A stretch of 47,623 bases of DNA from a phage. This document shows, piece by piece, positions 19,245 to 31,921 of this stretch. The DNA lies in the sequence record PZ445468.1; one strand, 5' to 3'. The notes beneath the pieces are model-generated. The model ran no database searches, had not been told where the DNA came from, and saw nothing but the letters and a program-made list of their open reading frames with translations. Both the position numbers and the translations under genes were made by a program. How positions within the stretch are numbered: the stretch's first letter is position 1; the number at the start of each line of letters is the position of its first letter.

Positions 19245-19364
19245 ATGGGTTCAACAAACGGTCCATCTCGTTCACGCGCTACTGGCAACACAAAAACTGG
19301 CGGCAAAACTGGCGCAGTGAAGCCAAACGGTTCTACCCGCTCACCGTCGCGCGGTAAAAAATAA
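19245..19364 (+). CDS. highly basic 39-aa protein
   Basis: short ORF read by eye; stop overlaps next ATG. Confidence 0.3.
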   Translation: MGSTNGPSRSRATGNTKTGGKTGAVKPNGSTRSPSRGKK

Positions 19365-19804
19365 TGTTCGGCGCAGATGTTGCCATCATGATCATGTATG
19401 TGTTGGGTTTTGCCTGCACTGGCATGGTCGCGTTTCTGGTGTTCATTCCGGCAATGGTGATGTCTGTGTATCTTGGATGGGTGCTTGTTGATTCATTTCC
19501 CGCCGAATATCTGTATTACATTGCGCAGTCTATGGTCTGGTTGTTTCCGGCTATAGAGCTGCGCAAAAGTACAAAGATGGCGCTCTGCGTGCTGACGATG
19601 AGCCTTTACGAATGGCTGGTTGCGATAGAGTCATTCGTATGGGAATTTATCACGCCTGTAGAAACGCCGCTTCATGCGCAGTACGCATTTATTATTATCG
19701 GCATCCATCTGTTCATCCTTTCCATCACTTTTAAATGGGGCGGCGAAATTGGACATTATTCTTGGCGTGGTCGCCATTGTTTTTTCGCTGATTCAAATCT
19801 ATAA
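19364..19804 (+). CDS. membrane protein
   Basis: several hydrophobic segments. Confidence 0.45.
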   Translation: MFGADVAIMIMYVLGFACTGMVAFLVFIPAMVMSVYLGWVLVDSFPAEYLYYIAQSMVWLFPAIELRKSTKMALCVLTMSLYEWLVAIESFVWEFITPVETPLHAQYAFIIIGIHLFILSITFKWGGEIGHYSWRGRHCFFADSNL

Positions 19805-19836
19805 GTGCTGGAAACATATCATCAGCGAGACACGCA

Positions 19837-20121
19837 ATGAACGGGACACTAAGGCAAATCGCAGAGCAGATTATAAGCGGAACGACAGGACAGGTGATTG
19901 ATAAGGCTGGATACGCTTCTATTGGCACAGGTATCGGTCTGAAGGTTGCAGAGCAAACACCTGTCACGCAATCTTATTTTGAGGCTATGATTCCACACAG
20001 CCTGACAGAATGGGCGGCAGTAGCGTCAATCCTCGGCGCTCTGTCTCTGGTAATAAAGAACCTGTTTGAAATGTGGTGGAAGGTACGGGAGTCGAAAAAA
20101 AATGGCAGCACCAACACCTGA
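19837..20121 (+). CDS. hypothetical protein
   Basis: ORF. Confidence 0.4.
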   Translation: MNGTLRQIAEQIISGTTGQVIDKAGYASIGTGIGLKVAEQTPVTQSYFEAMIPHSLTEWAAVASILGALSLVIKNLFEMWWKVRESKKNGSTNT

Positions 20122-21361: not shown

Positions 21362-21732
21362 ACATGCTTGAACTGGTTGATGCATATCTTCAGGATGCCG
21401 GATTATACGATGGTTGGACTTCGCAGTTGCAGTTCTGGAATGACACCGGAGATGGCAACGAGCAGTTTATTGTTCTGCAATCCAACGGTGGAACGCAGGT
21501 GATGGATGGCCTCGGCGGTGACTTCTATTTCTCGCTGTATGTTGTTGGCAAACATGGGCAGTACAATGTTGCGGATGTTGATGCGAAAGCCAGTGAGATT
21601 ATCGAATACATCAAGACACATCCGATTGATTCATGCGTTAACTACATCCAGTTGCAAGCGCCACTTGGCAGGCCAATGCTGACGGAGGAAAAACGACCTG
21701 TGCATGAGTTGCTTTTACGGGTTGTGAAATAA
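21358..21732 (+). CDS. putative tail completion / terminator protein
   Basis: position. Confidence 0.35.
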   Translation: MNMLELVDAYLQDAGLYDGWTSQLQFWNDTGDGNEQFIVLQSNGGTQVMDGLGGDFYFSLYVVGKHGQYNVADVDAKASEIIEYIKTHPIDSCVNYIQLQAPLGRPMLTEEKRPVHELLLRVVK

Positions 21733-21734
21733 AT

Positions 21735-21761
21735 AAAGCCGCACGAAGCGGCTTTTAATTT
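21735..21761 (+). terminator. rho-independent terminator
   Basis: AAAGCCGCACGAAGCGGCTTTTAATTT. Confidence 0.65.
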
Positions 21762-21836
21762 GGCACACCATGCAGGACTCGAACCTGCAACCAATAGCTT
21801 AGAAGGCTACTGCTCTGTCCGTTGAGCTAATGGTGT
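21761..21836 (-). tRNA. tRNA-Arg (anticodon TCT)
   Basis: 76-nt cloverleaf folded by hand: 7-bp acceptor stem ACACCAT/ATGGTGT, GTTCGAGTC T-loop, anticodon loop CTTCTAA, CCA end. Confidence 0.8.
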
Positions 21837-21842
21837 TTTATT

Positions 21843-21930
21843 TGGCGGATAGTACAGGATTCGAACCTGTGAACCGTTTCCGGTTTATCGGTTAGCAACC
21901 GACTGCTTTCGGCCTCTCAGCCAACTATCC
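21843..21930 (-). tRNA. tRNA-Ser (anticodon GCT), type II
   Basis: 88 nt: acceptor GGATAGT/ACTATCC, long variable arm, T-arm ACAGG-TTCGAAT-CCTGT, anticodon loop TTGCTAA, CCA end. Confidence 0.75.
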
Positions 21931-21970
21931 GTTTATTTAGTGCTGGTTTAAGCATTGCCAGCGTGCTTTC

Positions 21971-22034
21971 TTAATATCCAGCCCCGTAGCCCATACATAC
22001 CCATACATATGATTGCGATAATGCTGGATATTAA
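21971..22034. repeat. perfect 12-bp inverted repeat enclosing tandem CCCATACATA
   Basis: TTAATATCCAGC at 21971-21982 and GCTGGATATTAA at 22023-22034. Confidence 0.6.
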
Positions 22035-22791
22035 GTGTTGTGGCTCTGGTGCCTCCAGATTGCTGGTCGGTAAATCCAGCAGGCAATCACAAAACCGAAG
22101 TAGTGTTTCTTTACCTTGCCGCGTGCGCATAGCCGCATTACCACAACGGAAAGAGCACTGGTGGGACGCCTTCCTACATCATTGCGGTTCGGATTCCCCA
22201 CATAGCGCGTCACGGTCGTCGGCGAATTTTCCGTGGTCAATGCTCTTTCCTGTTGTGTGTTGTGGAGTGACGCACCATCTCACTATTAAATGTTAACCCA
22301 TTCCCAGCCCCACAACATGCGCTACGGTTAAGATTATTGCGTATATTGTATGGTCTTGCTGGTCACAACTGAAAGGGCACTTAACAGAAGATAGGTCTGA
22401 TTGCCTCGGATGATTTCTCAGTAGCCTAAATGCCCTTACATGTTGTGTGCCACGTTTCGTGTGGCTTACGGCAACGACATTACCGGATTATTCGATGCAC
22501 CTATGCGGGATTTACTAAGGCAACATGCCCGTTGTTACCCACTAAAGAGAGCACTATCTTCAAACAGACTTTGCGCGCAAGAACGACGATCAATCACAAT
22601 TCTCTCATTGGTAGGTGCCCATTATTAATCACACCGGGCCAGTGCGCCGAATTTGTTTACAAGGAATCGGAAGACCTTGCTGACTTACAGGCTATTACGC
22701 CGCCATCAGAACAACATCATCGTTTGCATTTATCTTTGTGGTCAGTTTCTAAAAAGTCCGCAAAGTCGCTCACGAAAACTATCTGAAATAC

Positions 22792-22835
22792 AATCTACAC
22801 CACAAAATAATCGCTGTCAACACCTGTGATATAAT
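22792..22835 (+). promoter_or_regulatory. extended -10 promoter TGTGATATAAT with upstream AATCTACACC
   Basis: TGnTATAAT 37 nt upstream of major tail ATG. Confidence 0.5.
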
Positions 22836-22871
22836 CACCACGTTAGCAGCTAACACAATTCGGAGATCGAA

Positions 22872-23588
22872 ATGGCTATTTATGCAAATGATAAGGGCGT
22901 TCTGGTTGGTCGTATGACCCGACTGTTCCTTGCTGAAGGGTGCGGTGACGCAGTTCCGGATGCAGAAGACTGGAAGTATTTAGGCTCAACCACCAGTAAA
23001 GGCGTTGACTACTCTCCGCAGACCACCACATCAGAAGCGGATACTACTGGCGGTTTTGTTTCCACTCTCGTTACCAGTTCTGATATGACCATCAGCGCAG
23101 AGGTGGAAATCCGCAAGAATGACCCGAGCGATGAGTTTGGCTTCCATCGTCTGGTTGAGATTTACGCCACTGAACTGAAGGCGCGTCGCCAGCCTTCCTT
23201 GTGGGTGCGTCAGGTGACTGGTGCAACTATCGTTACAGCGTACTGCAACATTACCAGCATCAGTTACGAAGGTGGCACGAACGACATCGTTACTGGCAGC
23301 CTTGAGTTCAAGGTTTACGATTCTGACAGTGTTACCGTCGAAAGCCTTGAAACTCTGGCATTCACTACCGACCTGCAATCAACAGGCAGCACTGGAAGCC
23401 CGTTAACTGTCGCTGTTGAAGGTGGCGTTGCTCCTTACACCTACGTGTGGCGCAAGGATGGCGTAGTTGTTGGTGGTGAGTCTGGCGCAACACTGGCAAG
23501 CCCAACCGCTGGTGTGTATACCGTTACGGTAACTGACTCGTCTACTGACCCGGAAATTATTATCAGCACGGCTTGCACCGTGTCCTGA
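22872..23588 (+). CDS. major tail protein
   Basis: 238-aa Thr/Ser/Val-rich ORF with Ig-like C-terminus, upstream of chaperone and tape measure. Confidence 0.7.
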   Translation: MAIYANDKGVLVGRMTRLFLAEGCGDAVPDAEDWKYLGSTTSKGVDYSPQTTTSEADTTGGFVSTLVTSSDMTISAEVEIRKNDPSDEFGFHRLVEIYATELKARRQPSLWVRQVTGATIVTAYCNITSISYEGGTNDIVTGSLEFKVYDSDSVTVESLETLAFTTDLQSTGSTGSPLTVAVEGGVAPYTYVWRKDGVVVGGESGATLASPTAGVYTVTVTDSSTDPEIIISTACTVS

Positions 23589-23594
23589 TAAAGA

Positions 23595-23619
23595 AAAAGC
23601 CCCGAAAGGGGCTTGTTTT
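23595..23619. terminator. bidirectional rho-independent terminator
   Basis: AAAAAGCCCCGAAAGGGGCTTGTTTT. Confidence 0.7.
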
Positions 23620-23827
23620 ATTCTTGCGGCGGCTCTGGTAGTGTCATCCAGTGAGATGGTTTCCACGAAGCGCCTGGAATTAGCCACCCGTCATCAGCAT
23701 TAGGATGCCCAGGGATATAAGTAGCCCACTTCATCCGCCAGTCGCCTCGATGACCGAACTCTGTAGCTACAAGAACTCCTGTCATTTTTGGTGGCATCCG
23801 CTCGCTACACTTAATCCACTGGCTCAT
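23618..23827 (-). CDS. DUF551-like protein
   Basis: WIKCSERMPP ... WMTLPEPP pattern. Confidence 0.45.
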   Translation of the reverse strand: MSQWIKCSERMPPKMTGVLVATEFGHRGDWRMKWATYIPGHPNADDGWLIPGASWKPSHWMTLPEPPQE

Positions 23828-24156
23828 AATTTATCCTCATTCATTTCCAGAAAGACAATCATGGCAGCGCGGAGTGGGTTTGTATCGAATGTTGTCTCTC
23901 CATCTTGACCATCTGCAAACCATATATCTCGATGGGTGCTTGGGGTTACCGATATAAAATTATTGGTAATAATCGGCCATGCATCAGCCGGGTTGTTGCA
24001 TGGGTCAAACTTTCGCTTAATATTTTTGTCATCAAAAAAGAAGAATCCATCGGGACATATGTGAGCCAACCCACCATTGGGGCAAAGGTTACTACTAACA
24101 AAAAAGAAAACCTTTTGCGCTATTTCCATGTCACTCATGTCTTCATAATTTTTCAT
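23824..24156 (-). CDS. hypothetical protein (110 aa)
   Basis: ORF. Confidence 0.45.
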   Translation of the reverse strand: MKNYEDMSDMEIAQKVFFFVSSNLCPNGGLAHICPDGFFFFDDKNIKRKFDPCNNPADAWPIITNNFISVTPSTHRDIWFADGQDGETTFDTNPLRAAMIVFLEMNEDKL

Positions 24157-24296
24157 ATCACCTTATCCTCATCAAAAATCACACCAATCACACGAAGCAA
24201 ATCTTTCGCCATGCGTTCGGCTTCTTCATAGTCGTAACCTGCATCGACATACAGATCAGTGTAGAAAATCAGGTCTGCTTTTGTTTGCTCGTTCAT
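24153..24296 (-). CDS. hypothetical protein (47 aa)
   Basis: short ORF read by eye, ATGA overlaps on both sides. Confidence 0.3.
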   Translation of the reverse strand: MNEQTKADLIFYTDLYVDAGYDYEEAERMAKDLLRVIGVIFDEDKVI

Positions 24297-24487
24297 TTCT
24301 TGTCGCCACTGTTAACTAATGCCCAAACAAGTGCTGCAACCCACCCAATAAAGCTCCATCCGACAAGAATATTCAATACACAGATTGCGGTCGTATTTGT
24401 GTGCTTTCTTTGCAATGCAACAAATGACGGGAGAAGATAAGCGAATATCACCAAACCAACAAAAACCAACAAAATAACAACGTCCAT
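24293..24487 (-). CDS. superinfection-immunity-like membrane protein
   Basis: LPSFVALQRKH ... GWSFIGWVAALVWAL resembles Imm_superinfect family. Confidence 0.5.
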   Translation of the reverse strand: MDVVILLVFVGLVIFAYLLPSFVALQRKHTNTTAICVLNILVGWSFIGWVAALVWALVNSGDKK

Positions 24488-24519
24488 AGTTAACCTCAAC
24501 TGTTAATAACTTGTTTATA

Positions 24520-24813
24520 TTACATGCCATTCTTTTCGCACAAAGCAACAGATACATCACGCAATTGCTCTTTGGTCATATCCTTGCGTGCATAAACCAT
24601 TTCTACGATAGCAAGGCCGATTATTTCTGCTGATTCGTTGTTTTTTGTGGAACCCTTAACTACCACCTCGGCAAGATTCTTGCTGATACCGTTATCGCGA
24701 GCATCGGCAGTGTTCATGGCGATTTCTCCTATGTTTTTGCAAACCTCAGAGGTTGCTACAGCAGAAAAAGAAGAAACCAGCAAAGCAGATGCGATCAACA
24801 TTTTAATTTTCAT
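24520..24813 (-). CDS. secreted/periplasmic protein
   Basis: N-terminal signal peptide MKIKMLIASALLVSSFSAVA. Confidence 0.45.
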   Translation of the reverse strand: MKIKMLIASALLVSSFSAVATSEVCKNIGEIAMNTADARDNGISKNLAEVVVKGSTKNNESAEIIGLAIVEMVYARKDMTKEQLRDVSVALCEKNGM

Positions 24814-24848
24814 AACTCACCTCATTCATATCTCGTTTCGATGACTTG

Positions 24849-24897
24849 AATCTACATCACCGCCTGGCAGGTGTCAACACCACTGAGATGATATAAT
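24849..24897. promoter_or_regulatory. divergent promoters
   Basis: leftward TTGACA-17-TAGATT; rightward extended -10 TGATATAAT before tail chaperone. Confidence 0.55.
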
Positions 24898-24926
24898 CAA
24901 CATCAGTCAAATTCAGGATGTAAAAC

Positions 24927-25634
24927 ATGAGCAATCGCACGCCACTAACAGAAATCGGAGAGATGCGCATCTCGCTTTCCGACAGGAGTTTTTTCTTCAA
25001 GCCGTCATTCCGCGCCATGAATGAAATCGGCACACCAAAAGAAATCGTCGAGGTGTACGCAAGACTCAATGGCATTGATTATGTTGCGCCATTGCAGCAC
25101 GTCGAATACCTGCCATTTGGCGCTCAGATGCAGGTCATGAAGACCATCAGCAAGCCTGTGTATGGTCGGCACGTGCTGAGTGCTGCCTATATCGTCATGC
25201 AGTCATGCTGTGAAGATGATATTTCCGTACTGATTGGTGGATGGAAACCAACACCACGCGGTGTGCGATATGTTCCCGGCATCATGCCAGTGAGCGACAT
25301 TATTATTATTGCGCGTAACCTGATGCAGCACGGTATCATCGGCAAGTCACCACTCAAAGTACCTGAACGACTGGAAGAGCAGGGCAAGAAAACCACAAAC
25401 GAATTTCATGCGTCGCAATACATCATCTCAGCACGCACGCATTTCGACATGACGCGTGATGAGGCTGAAAACCTGTCAATGACAGAGTTTCAGATGATGA
25501 TTAAAAATAAATACCCAGAGCCGAAAGGATTAACGAAAGAAGAGCGCGAGGCAGAGTACGATCAGGCTAAAGCAGACCGTGAGCGCATGAAGGCACTGGC
25601 TGAACGCAAAGCGAAAAAAGCGAGGAATACATAA
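24927..25634 (+). CDS. tail assembly chaperone
   Basis: ORF immediately upstream of tape measure gene. Confidence 0.5.
   Translation: MSNRTPLTEIGEMRISLSDRSFFFKPSFRAMNEIGTPKEIVEVYARLNGIDYVAPLQHVEYLPFGAQMQVMKTISKPVYGRHVLSAAYIVMQSCCEDDISVLIGGWKPTPRGVRYVPGIMPVSDIIIIARNLMQHGIIGKSPLKVPERLEEQGKKTTNEFHASQYIISARTHFDMTRDEAENLSMTEFQMMIKNKYPEPKGLTKEEREAEYDQAKADRERMKALAERKAKKARNT

Positions 25635-28120: not shown

Positions 28121-31921
<3,801 letters not shown>

Follow-up and report, generated by a model that had tools for sequence, protein, structure and literature searches.

A conserved antisense gene cassette encoding a homolog of T4 Imm in the tail module of Escherichia phage TanjaMuster_Bas81

Five antisense genes between two tail genes

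The window analyzed here, 47,623 bp long, is the complete genome of Escherichia phage TanjaMuster_Bas81 (hereafter Bas81; PQ850630.1); the start points of record and window are 1048 bases apart. Five consecutive minus-strand genes fill positions 23618-24813, flanked by the major tail gene on one side and by a DUF6246-family gene on the other. Read from the promoter end, this cassette encodes a secreted protein of 97 amino acids (aa), which we call sp97 (24520..24813), a 64-aa membrane protein of the Imm_superinfect family (24293..24487), an acidic 47-aa protein, orf47 (24153..24296), a 110-aa protein of the NinX (DUF2591) family (23824..24156) and a 69-aa DUF551 protein (23618..23827). GenBank lists the genes under locus tags Bas81_0065 to Bas81_0069; Bas81_0068 is already named 'superinfection immunity protein' there, and relatives carry the same label. 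Over window positions 23400-25000, our sequence is 99.9% identical to the GenBank record.

Bas81 is a virulent siphovirus of the Skatevirus type. It was described in the second instalment of the BASEL collection as a small siphovirus of the Skatevirus cluster, whose infection requires the O16 O-antigen of E. coli K-12 and makes use of a tailspike; the same work groups such small siphoviruses with virulent phages (PMC11990801). No integrase or repressor gene is found among the annotations of the Bas81 GenBank record.

The major tail gene (phrog_853, E = 4.5e-84) is one flank and converges on the cassette. On the promoter side lies the DUF6246 gene (phrog_791), from a family without assigned function. 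According to the GenBank annotation, about seven minus-strand blocks alternate with plus-strand structural and lysis units in Bas81, so that an antisense orientation among structural genes is normal in this phage. These blocks include ones with RusA, ParB, SSB and an exonuclease VIII-type nuclease.

A first-pass annotation, made from the sequence alone, had described this locus as five minus-strand open reading frames (ORFs), namely a signal-peptide protein, an Imm_superinfect-like 64-aa membrane protein, a 47-aa and a 110-aa ORF and a DUF551-like protein, with their own TTGACA-17-TAGATT promoter and a bidirectional terminator. All five ORFs were found exactly where it had placed them and with the character it had ascribed to them, and the promoter and terminator held up equally well when compared across relatives. 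Its placement of the cassette between the major tail gene and a chaperone was right as regards the first neighbor; the second is the DUF6246 gene, which owes the label 'chaperone' only to its position just before the tape-measure gene. The family search of each ORF that it had proposed as a check gave Pfam matches for three proteins and PHROG matches for all five, so that none is left without a family assignment, although the PHROG families of sp97 and orf47 are of unknown function. Its interpretation of the genes as cargo, forming a candidate superinfection-exclusion or host-modulation module, is partly supported, as set out below.

The start and stop codons of Imm and orf47, of orf47 and NinX, and of NinX and DUF551 overlap as ATGA, and the last four genes are thus probably translationally coupled. 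The G+C content of the cassette is 42.6% versus 46.4% for the genome, a modest gap; four of the genes range from 40 to 42%, and DUF551 reaches 51.9%.

We compared the cassette with 34 related loci from IMG/VR, retrieved with the major tail protein as query, and with GenBank relatives. In this set, 37 loci span the cassette, 38 are informative for orf47 and the terminator, and 36 for the cassette type. All 37 spanning loci have the cassette at this position and in this orientation, with conserved coding frames. The ratio of non-synonymous to synonymous polymorphism (pN/pS) could be measured for three cassette genes and is 0.058 for orf47, 0.093 for Imm and 0.153 for sp97, values similar to those of the flanking major tail protein (0.067) and DUF6246 (0.037) genes. 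This constancy of place and orientation, the low pN/pS and the unchanged promoter hexamers and terminator stem described below establish the ORFs and signals of the cassette as functional elements under purifying selection. One could still argue for chance open frames or mis-annotations opposite a non-coding spacer, since the cassette includes short ORFs of 47 and 64 aa and since orf47, whose start overlaps the Imm stop, is preceded by no clear ribosome-binding site. This view is refuted by the family matches of all five proteins, the pN/pS range of 0.06-0.15, the ATGA overlaps and the frames conserved in 37 loci, and we consider it extremely improbable.

None of the five cassette proteins scored above threshold against the PADLOC and NCBIfam libraries. 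In an Rfam scan of positions 21600-25000, significant scores were obtained for two tRNAs only. A megablast comparison of the cassette with 5426 complete E. coli genomes yielded as sole match a stretch of 33 nt within NinX genes; there has been no recent DNA-level transfer of the cassette from E. coli.

A homolog of T4 Imm

The second gene of the cassette, imm, encodes a protein that matches the Imm_superinfect domain (PF14373) with E = 3.3e-18 and 65.7 bits, well above the gathering cut-off of 27.9, and over profile positions 2-42 of 42. In PHROG it belongs to phrog_1039 (E = 8e-25), the family that also contains T4 Imm. A pairwise alignment with T4 Imm gives 36% identity over 53 aa (E = 5e-12), spanning both hydrophobic segments, and the two proteins have in common the motif Y..P...A..R...I...W...W. 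In a four-way alignment of the Bas81, T4, Jerseyvirus and Klebsiella-phage proteins, residues Y17, P20, A24, R27, I35, W44 and W55 are invariant. Hydropathy analysis, with maxima at residues 1-25 and 33-58, predicts two membrane segments, at about residues 3-25 and 34-58, with a basic loop, QRKHTNTT, between them. Taken together, these comparisons argue firmly that the 64-aa protein is a true homolog of T4 Imm.

Translation of Imm is assigned to the ATG at 24487, which is preceded at 6 nt by a GAGG ribosome-binding site. An upstream TTG start, giving 68 aa in a mechanical ORF list, was rejected, as the TTG falls within this GAGG site.

T4 Imm blocks DNA injection, leaving the DNA of the superinfecting phage in the periplasm (GenBank note; PMC11436027; PMC9409062). 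Superinfection exclusion by blocked DNA entry is, by analogy, our best inference for the mechanism of the Bas81 protein, and it is drawn from homology to one characterized protein, T4 Imm. Both are small proteins of the inner-membrane type, encoded by a virulent phage behind a promoter of the host type, a predicted one in the case of Bas81. However, T4 Imm has 83 aa and a C-terminal tail that the 64-aa Bas81 version lacks. Also, T4 imm lies in the early region between genes 42 and 43, whereas its Bas81 counterpart lies within a siphovirus tail module; and the presumed target in Bas81 would be a tape-measure-based siphovirus tail rather than the baseplate and gp5 device of T4. As for timing, T4 imm is expressed early.

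The Imm homolog may instead have another membrane role, such as setting lysis timing as a holin or antiholin, protecting against lysis from without, or neutralizing a membrane-acting defense effector. Its small size and two membrane segments correspond to the general build of class II holins, it shows a weak, sub-threshold match to a 2TM-TIR defense model (E = 0.0023), and members of its family are found in phages that enter cells by quite unrelated mechanisms. However, Bas81 encodes a holin elsewhere, in a distinct lysis cassette, imm lies behind a predicted host-type promoter and away from the lysis genes, and the sole characterized member of the family acts on DNA entry. We therefore regard such a role as rather unlikely, and keep blocked DNA entry as the preferred mechanism.

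Promoters and terminator

The cassette promoter, of the sigma-70 type, lies on the minus strand at 24849..24877 and is composed of a -35 hexamer TTGACA (24877..24872), a 17-nt spacer and a -10 hexamer TAGATT (24854..24849), with 10 of 12 matches to consensus. This motif is a candidate early promoter of the host type. Both hexamers are identical and 17 nt apart in 35 of the 37 loci, and the same hexamers stand 18 nt apart in the remaining two; the spacer sequence varies among loci while the hexamers do not. Only five minus-strand sites with at least 10 of 12 consensus matches exist in the whole 47.6-kb genome, and four of these five strongest sites head minus-strand gene or tRNA blocks.

At the other end, the cassette and the converging major tail gene have a two-way intrinsic terminator in common (23597..23614, both strands), formed by the hairpin AAGCCCC-GAAA-GGGGCTT with a T-run on each strand. 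The stem GCCCC/GGGGC is kept in 38/38 loci, and changes are confined to the loop.

Back to back with the cassette promoter, 12 bases away, a predicted extended -10 promoter, TGATATAAT, is found on the plus strand at 24889..24897. It is kept in all 37 loci and would drive DUF6246, the tape-measure gene and further tail genes. The same promoter pair occurs again upstream of the major tail gene, with TTGACA-17-TAGATT on the minus strand at 22820..22792 and TGATATAAT on the plus strand at 22827-22835, and the segment 22792-22871 is at least 97% conserved in nearly all related loci. From this second pair and the terminator it follows that the major tail gene forms a single-gene unit, with the cassette filling the gap before the next tail unit.

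A secreted 97-aa protein

The first gene after the promoter encodes sp97 (phrog_2315, E = 2.5e-18). Its signal peptide corresponds to about residues 1-20, MKIKMLIASALLVSSFSAVA, followed by TS, with cleavage between AVA and TS and no lipobox cysteine. The mature protein (77 aa) forms four helices in an AlphaFold model (pLDDT 79). A pair of cysteines, C25 and C92, is kept even among sp97 versions of 35-41% identity.

A word-indexed search for sp97 returned Skatevirus-type proteins only. An exhaustive phmmer search with the mature sequence against 1.84 billion representatives retrieved its own cluster and one 96-aa protein of 28% identity, possibly of Klebsiella-phage type. Two giant proteins also retrieved by phmmer were dismissed as artefacts, as their scores were sums of weak matches to TPR or HYR repeats. 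Using tblastn, we found homologs of 28-34% identity in Klebsiella, Vibrio and Aeromonas phages. A Foldseek search of viral models gave as nearest neighbors uncharacterized helical bundles of about 100 aa, annotated as phage 'exported protein' or 'lipoprotein' and drawn from diverse phages. In the Klebsiella and Vibrio (Roufvirus) relatives, both of whose contexts we examined, the sp97 homolog (L039 3007-3297 and L040 2941-3231, respectively) heads a different antisense block, which diverges from the endolysin gene.

The combination of sp97 with Imm recalls the Spackle protein of T4 (sp, gene 61.3), which like sp97 has 97 aa and a signal peptide. Spackle is a helical periplasmic protein that acts alongside Imm (PMC7677548). 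We may thus hypothesize that sp97 and Imm form a two-part system of the same kind, in which periplasmic sp97 would inhibit a cell-wall-degrading enzyme of the incoming tail, for example one of the NlpC/P60 type; sp97 adjoins Imm in 15 of 36 loci, and a Bas81 tail protein with an NlpC/P60 domain (29056-29526) offers a possible target. However, sp97 has no sequence similarity to T4 Spackle (E = 21) and no fold match in the PDB, and we hold such a partnership to be improbable. The reading of sp97 that we prefer is that of a second envelope factor, independent of Imm.

Variation of the cassette among relatives

Seven cassette types were distinguished among the 36 loci. With genes listed from the promoter end, sp97-Imm-orf47-NinX-DUF551, the type of Bas81, is found in eight loci, sp97-Imm-orf47-DUF551 and sp97-orf47-DUF551 in seven each, Imm-orf47-DUF551 in six, Imm-orf47-NinX-DUF551 in five, a divergent sp97-orf47 form in two and Imm-orf47-NinX in one. 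Thus sp97 occurs in 24/36 loci and Imm in 27/36: fifteen loci have both, nine sp97 only, twelve Imm only, and none has neither. In loci without sp97, the Imm start codon is fused to the leader and ribosome-binding site used by sp97 elsewhere, which means that the presence or absence of sp97 is exact at the level of the ORF. Two loci (L014, 6393-6668, and L017) have an extra first gene, for which no PHROG match was obtained; it encodes a 91-aa protein anchored in the membrane by its C-terminal end. These loci are also the two with the 18-nt promoter spacer.

This variation bears on the term 'moron', which the first-pass annotation had applied to the operon. In the sense of Hendrix and Juhala, a moron is said to have its own promoter and terminator, a variable presence, an odd base composition and expression from the prophage to the benefit of the lysogen. 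The cassette as a whole has its own promoter and terminator, which the individual genes share, and a lower G+C content, and sp97, Imm and NinX come and go independently of one another; yet the cassette is never absent from the 37 loci, and expression for a lysogen does not fit a virulent phage without annotated integrase or repressor. We therefore view the cassette as a conserved feature of the genus and not as a strain-specific moron. Moron-like behavior is limited to individual genes: sp97, Imm, NinX and the alternative 91-aa gene.

Related arrangements exist in more distant phages. Klebsiella phage BUCT610 has homologous flanks (55-68% identity), and the same slot contains Imm, a homolog of orf47 (56%), NinX and two further genes. 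In the Jerseyvirus Salmonella virus VSe101 (gp20-gp23; L044 4656-7136), the order is as in Bas81, with a tail-tube gene, an antisense block and chaperone and tape-measure genes, and the Imm protein is 42% identical to that of Bas81 (E = 1.5e-12). However, the tail genes flanking the VSe101 block are of phrog_290 and the G/GT chaperone type, as opposed to phrog_853 and DUF6246 in Bas81, and Imm is followed by an exonuclease, a small ORF and an Ant-like regulator instead of orf47, NinX and DUF551. In both BUCT610 and VSe101, Imm is the first gene of the antisense block in the gap between the tail-tube and chaperone/tape-measure genes. This recurrent placement may be functional, for example through linkage to the entry apparatus, or may merely reflect a convenient gap between transcription units.

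The temperate phage HK97 offers another parallel: its gp15, expressed from the prophage, blocks DNA entry by the same phage type. It is a superinfection exclusion protein (Cumby et al. 2012, cited in PMC11436027). As in Bas81, a small membrane protein is encoded inside the tail cluster, adjoining the chaperone and tape-measure genes. However, no alignment to gp15 with E <= 100 was found, gp15 has one hydrophobic segment against two, and it is encoded on the strand of the tail genes by a single gene with its own terminator, in contrast to the antisense five-gene operon of Bas81.

orf47, NinX and DUF551

The orf47 protein (pI 4.1; phrog_17424, E = 1.8e-36) is the sole cassette product that is always present, being found in 38/38 loci with a mean pairwise identity of 96%. 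That its pN/pS (0.058) compares with that of the major tail protein (0.067) and that BUCT610 retains it at 56% identity suggest a different view of the locus: a core early operon in which orf47, together with the DUF551-type gene, would be needed for growth, with Imm and sp97 as dispensable passengers of little effect on fitness. In support of this, the cassette is never absent, and yet Imm is missing from 9/36 and sp97 from 12/36 loci. On the other hand, strong purifying selection acts on Imm and sp97 as well (pN/pS 0.09 and 0.15), and every locus has at least one of the two. We consider this scenario possible but the less probable one; it is in any case compatible with, and not opposed to, our preferred view of an accessory operon with Imm-type exclusion.

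The NinX-family protein is an accessory one, encoded in 14/36 loci with 38-72% identity. Its match to PF10765 (E = 6.2e-11, 43 bits, cut-off 22.6) involves the C-terminal part only, residues 48-105 aligning with profile positions 43-113, whereas phrog_444 covers its full length (E = 5.7e-28). The 33-nt exact match reported above concerns NinX genes on 45 E. coli chromosomes. At least one non-synonymous difference separates the NinX gene of the window from that of the GenBank record (L001, 24872-25204), which read ISVTPST and ISVIPST, respectively.

The DUF551 protein matches PF04448 over profile positions 1-68 of 68 (E = 4.1e-18, 66.4 bits, cut-off 22); DUF551 has been described as an uncharacterized portable domain (PMC10834534), and our structure model of the protein gave no fold match. 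The versions found at this position have conserved ends, MSQWIKCSERMPE... and ...THWMPLPEPPQE, and a highly variable center. In sister phages, they are 29-44% identical to that of Bas81, with one exception at 91%, and identity between pairs averages 45% across the family, as against more than 90% for the flanking genes. Conversely, full-length alignment of Bas81 DUF551 with DUF551 proteins of E. coli and Salmonella gives identities of 75-88%. The one homolog for which we examined the genomic surroundings is located near Abc2, Erf and integrase, among the early-left accessory genes of P22-like or lambdoid prophages. The variable center, the high identity to prophage-type proteins and a G+C content higher than in the other cassette genes all point to replacement of the DUF551 gene from a pool carried by host prophages.

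Both PF10765 and PF04448 (as in YfdS and Ea22 variant 2) are families typical of the accessory early genes of lambdoid and P22-like prophages. While the lambdoid and P22-like NinX and DUF551 genes are found in prophages, those of Bas81 are located in the tail module of a virulent phage.

A proposed role in superinfection exclusion and host takeover

We propose, as the overall best explanation and with a probability of roughly 0.6, that the cassette is an accessory operon that combines Imm-type exclusion, an envelope factor and proteins for host takeover or counter-defense. The operon, of about 1.25 kb, separates two tail units that are transcribed rightward, the major tail gene and the DUF6246/tape-measure unit, and would probably be read by host RNA polymerase once the DNA enters the cell, hence early in infection. 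In favor of a host-type promoter, four of the five strongest minus-strand promoter matches head minus-strand blocks, and the equivalent Jerseyvirus antisense block has early-type genes (exonuclease, Ant-like regulator). Imm would then insert into the inner membrane and, as T4 Imm does, stop the DNA of later-arriving phages from crossing it, so that the infected cell would be protected from takeover by related phages. Protein sp97 would be exported to the periplasm and, in that compartment, provide a second envelope factor that does not depend on Imm; the distribution of sp97 and Imm in the 36 loci, none of which has neither, is consistent with selection for an envelope function. In the cytoplasm, orf47, NinX and DUF551 may serve in host takeover or counter-defense, a suggestion based on the NinX and DUF551 families being typical of lambdoid prophages and on DUF551 being closest here to prophage genes.

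Several observations weigh against this proposal. PF14373 is a large family that extends over T4-like phages, mycobacteriophages, Acinetobacter phages, an Enterococcus phage and ~73-kb Klebsiella/Escherichia phages, and belonging to a family found in such dissimilar phages is not enough by itself to assign a function. A siphovirus also brings its DNA into the cell by machinery that differs from that of T4. Imm is missing from nine of the 36 relatives. The lack of loci with neither Imm nor sp97 (Fisher p = 0.016) is only suggestive, since the test ignores shared ancestry and the set contains duplicates. Our sequence and structure searches returned no characterized homolog of sp97, orf47, NinX or DUF551. 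Our literature search turned up neither a publication on the operon nor expression or phenotype work on it or on Imm homologs outside the T-even phages; those of Skatevirus and Jerseyvirus are mentioned at the annotation level, with no experimental test found.

More speculatively, the gap between the tail-tube and chaperone/tape-measure genes could be a promoter-equipped slot for swappable envelope-acting exclusion proteins (Imm, sp97 and the 91-aa protein), of which at least one is always kept. In this scheme, which we advance as a long shot, sp97 would represent a new family of periplasmic superinfection-exclusion proteins, and orf47 and the prophage-traded DUF551 would be counter-defense factors. 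It concerns small virulent siphoviruses of enterobacteria and, if true, would make orf47 and DUF551 part of the arms race.

Superinfection exclusion in virulent phages is relevant to the design of phage cocktails and to phage competition. Imm-type proteins are widespread: our tblastn search, in which imm genes of the T2/T4 type were among the matches, found such sequences in 1746 phage records, while the T4 member alone has been studied. With a public BASEL phage, a defined K-12 host, a short Imm and relatives that differ in their sets of Imm and sp97, Bas81 would provide a convenient comparative system for the function of Imm against a siphovirus. Beyond this comparative use, the cassette is an ordinary, already annotated cluster of accessory genes, whose Imm gene is labeled in public records.

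Other features of the Bas81 genome

Two further candidate envelope-acting accessory proteins are encoded on the plus strand at 19364-20121, a lipoprotein (phrog_14688) and a 94-aa membrane protein (phrog_13738, category 'moron'). The NlpC/P60 domain of the tail protein at 29056-29526 is detected with E = 7e-9, as in lambda gpK; the protein is a candidate cell-wall hydrolase carried by the virion.

Between the tail terminator gene and the major tail gene, the minus strand encodes tRNA-Arg (TCT) and tRNA-Ser (GCT) at 21761-21930; relatives have other tRNAs at the equivalent position, for example tRNA-Ile in phage Skate. Upstream of these two genes and downstream of the minus-strand promoter at 22820 lies an ORF-poor region of about 860 bp (21931-22790). 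The plus-strand ORFs given there by GenBank (21955-22296 and 22430-22786) translate into sequences rich in Cys, Ser and Arg and appear to be non-coding. Weak, sub-threshold Rfam matches resembling transfer-messenger RNA are seen on the minus strand at 22646-22804. Conservation of the region among relatives is patchy, with one conserved block containing a long hairpin at about 21970-22035 (13 + 9 bp, z = -3.1).

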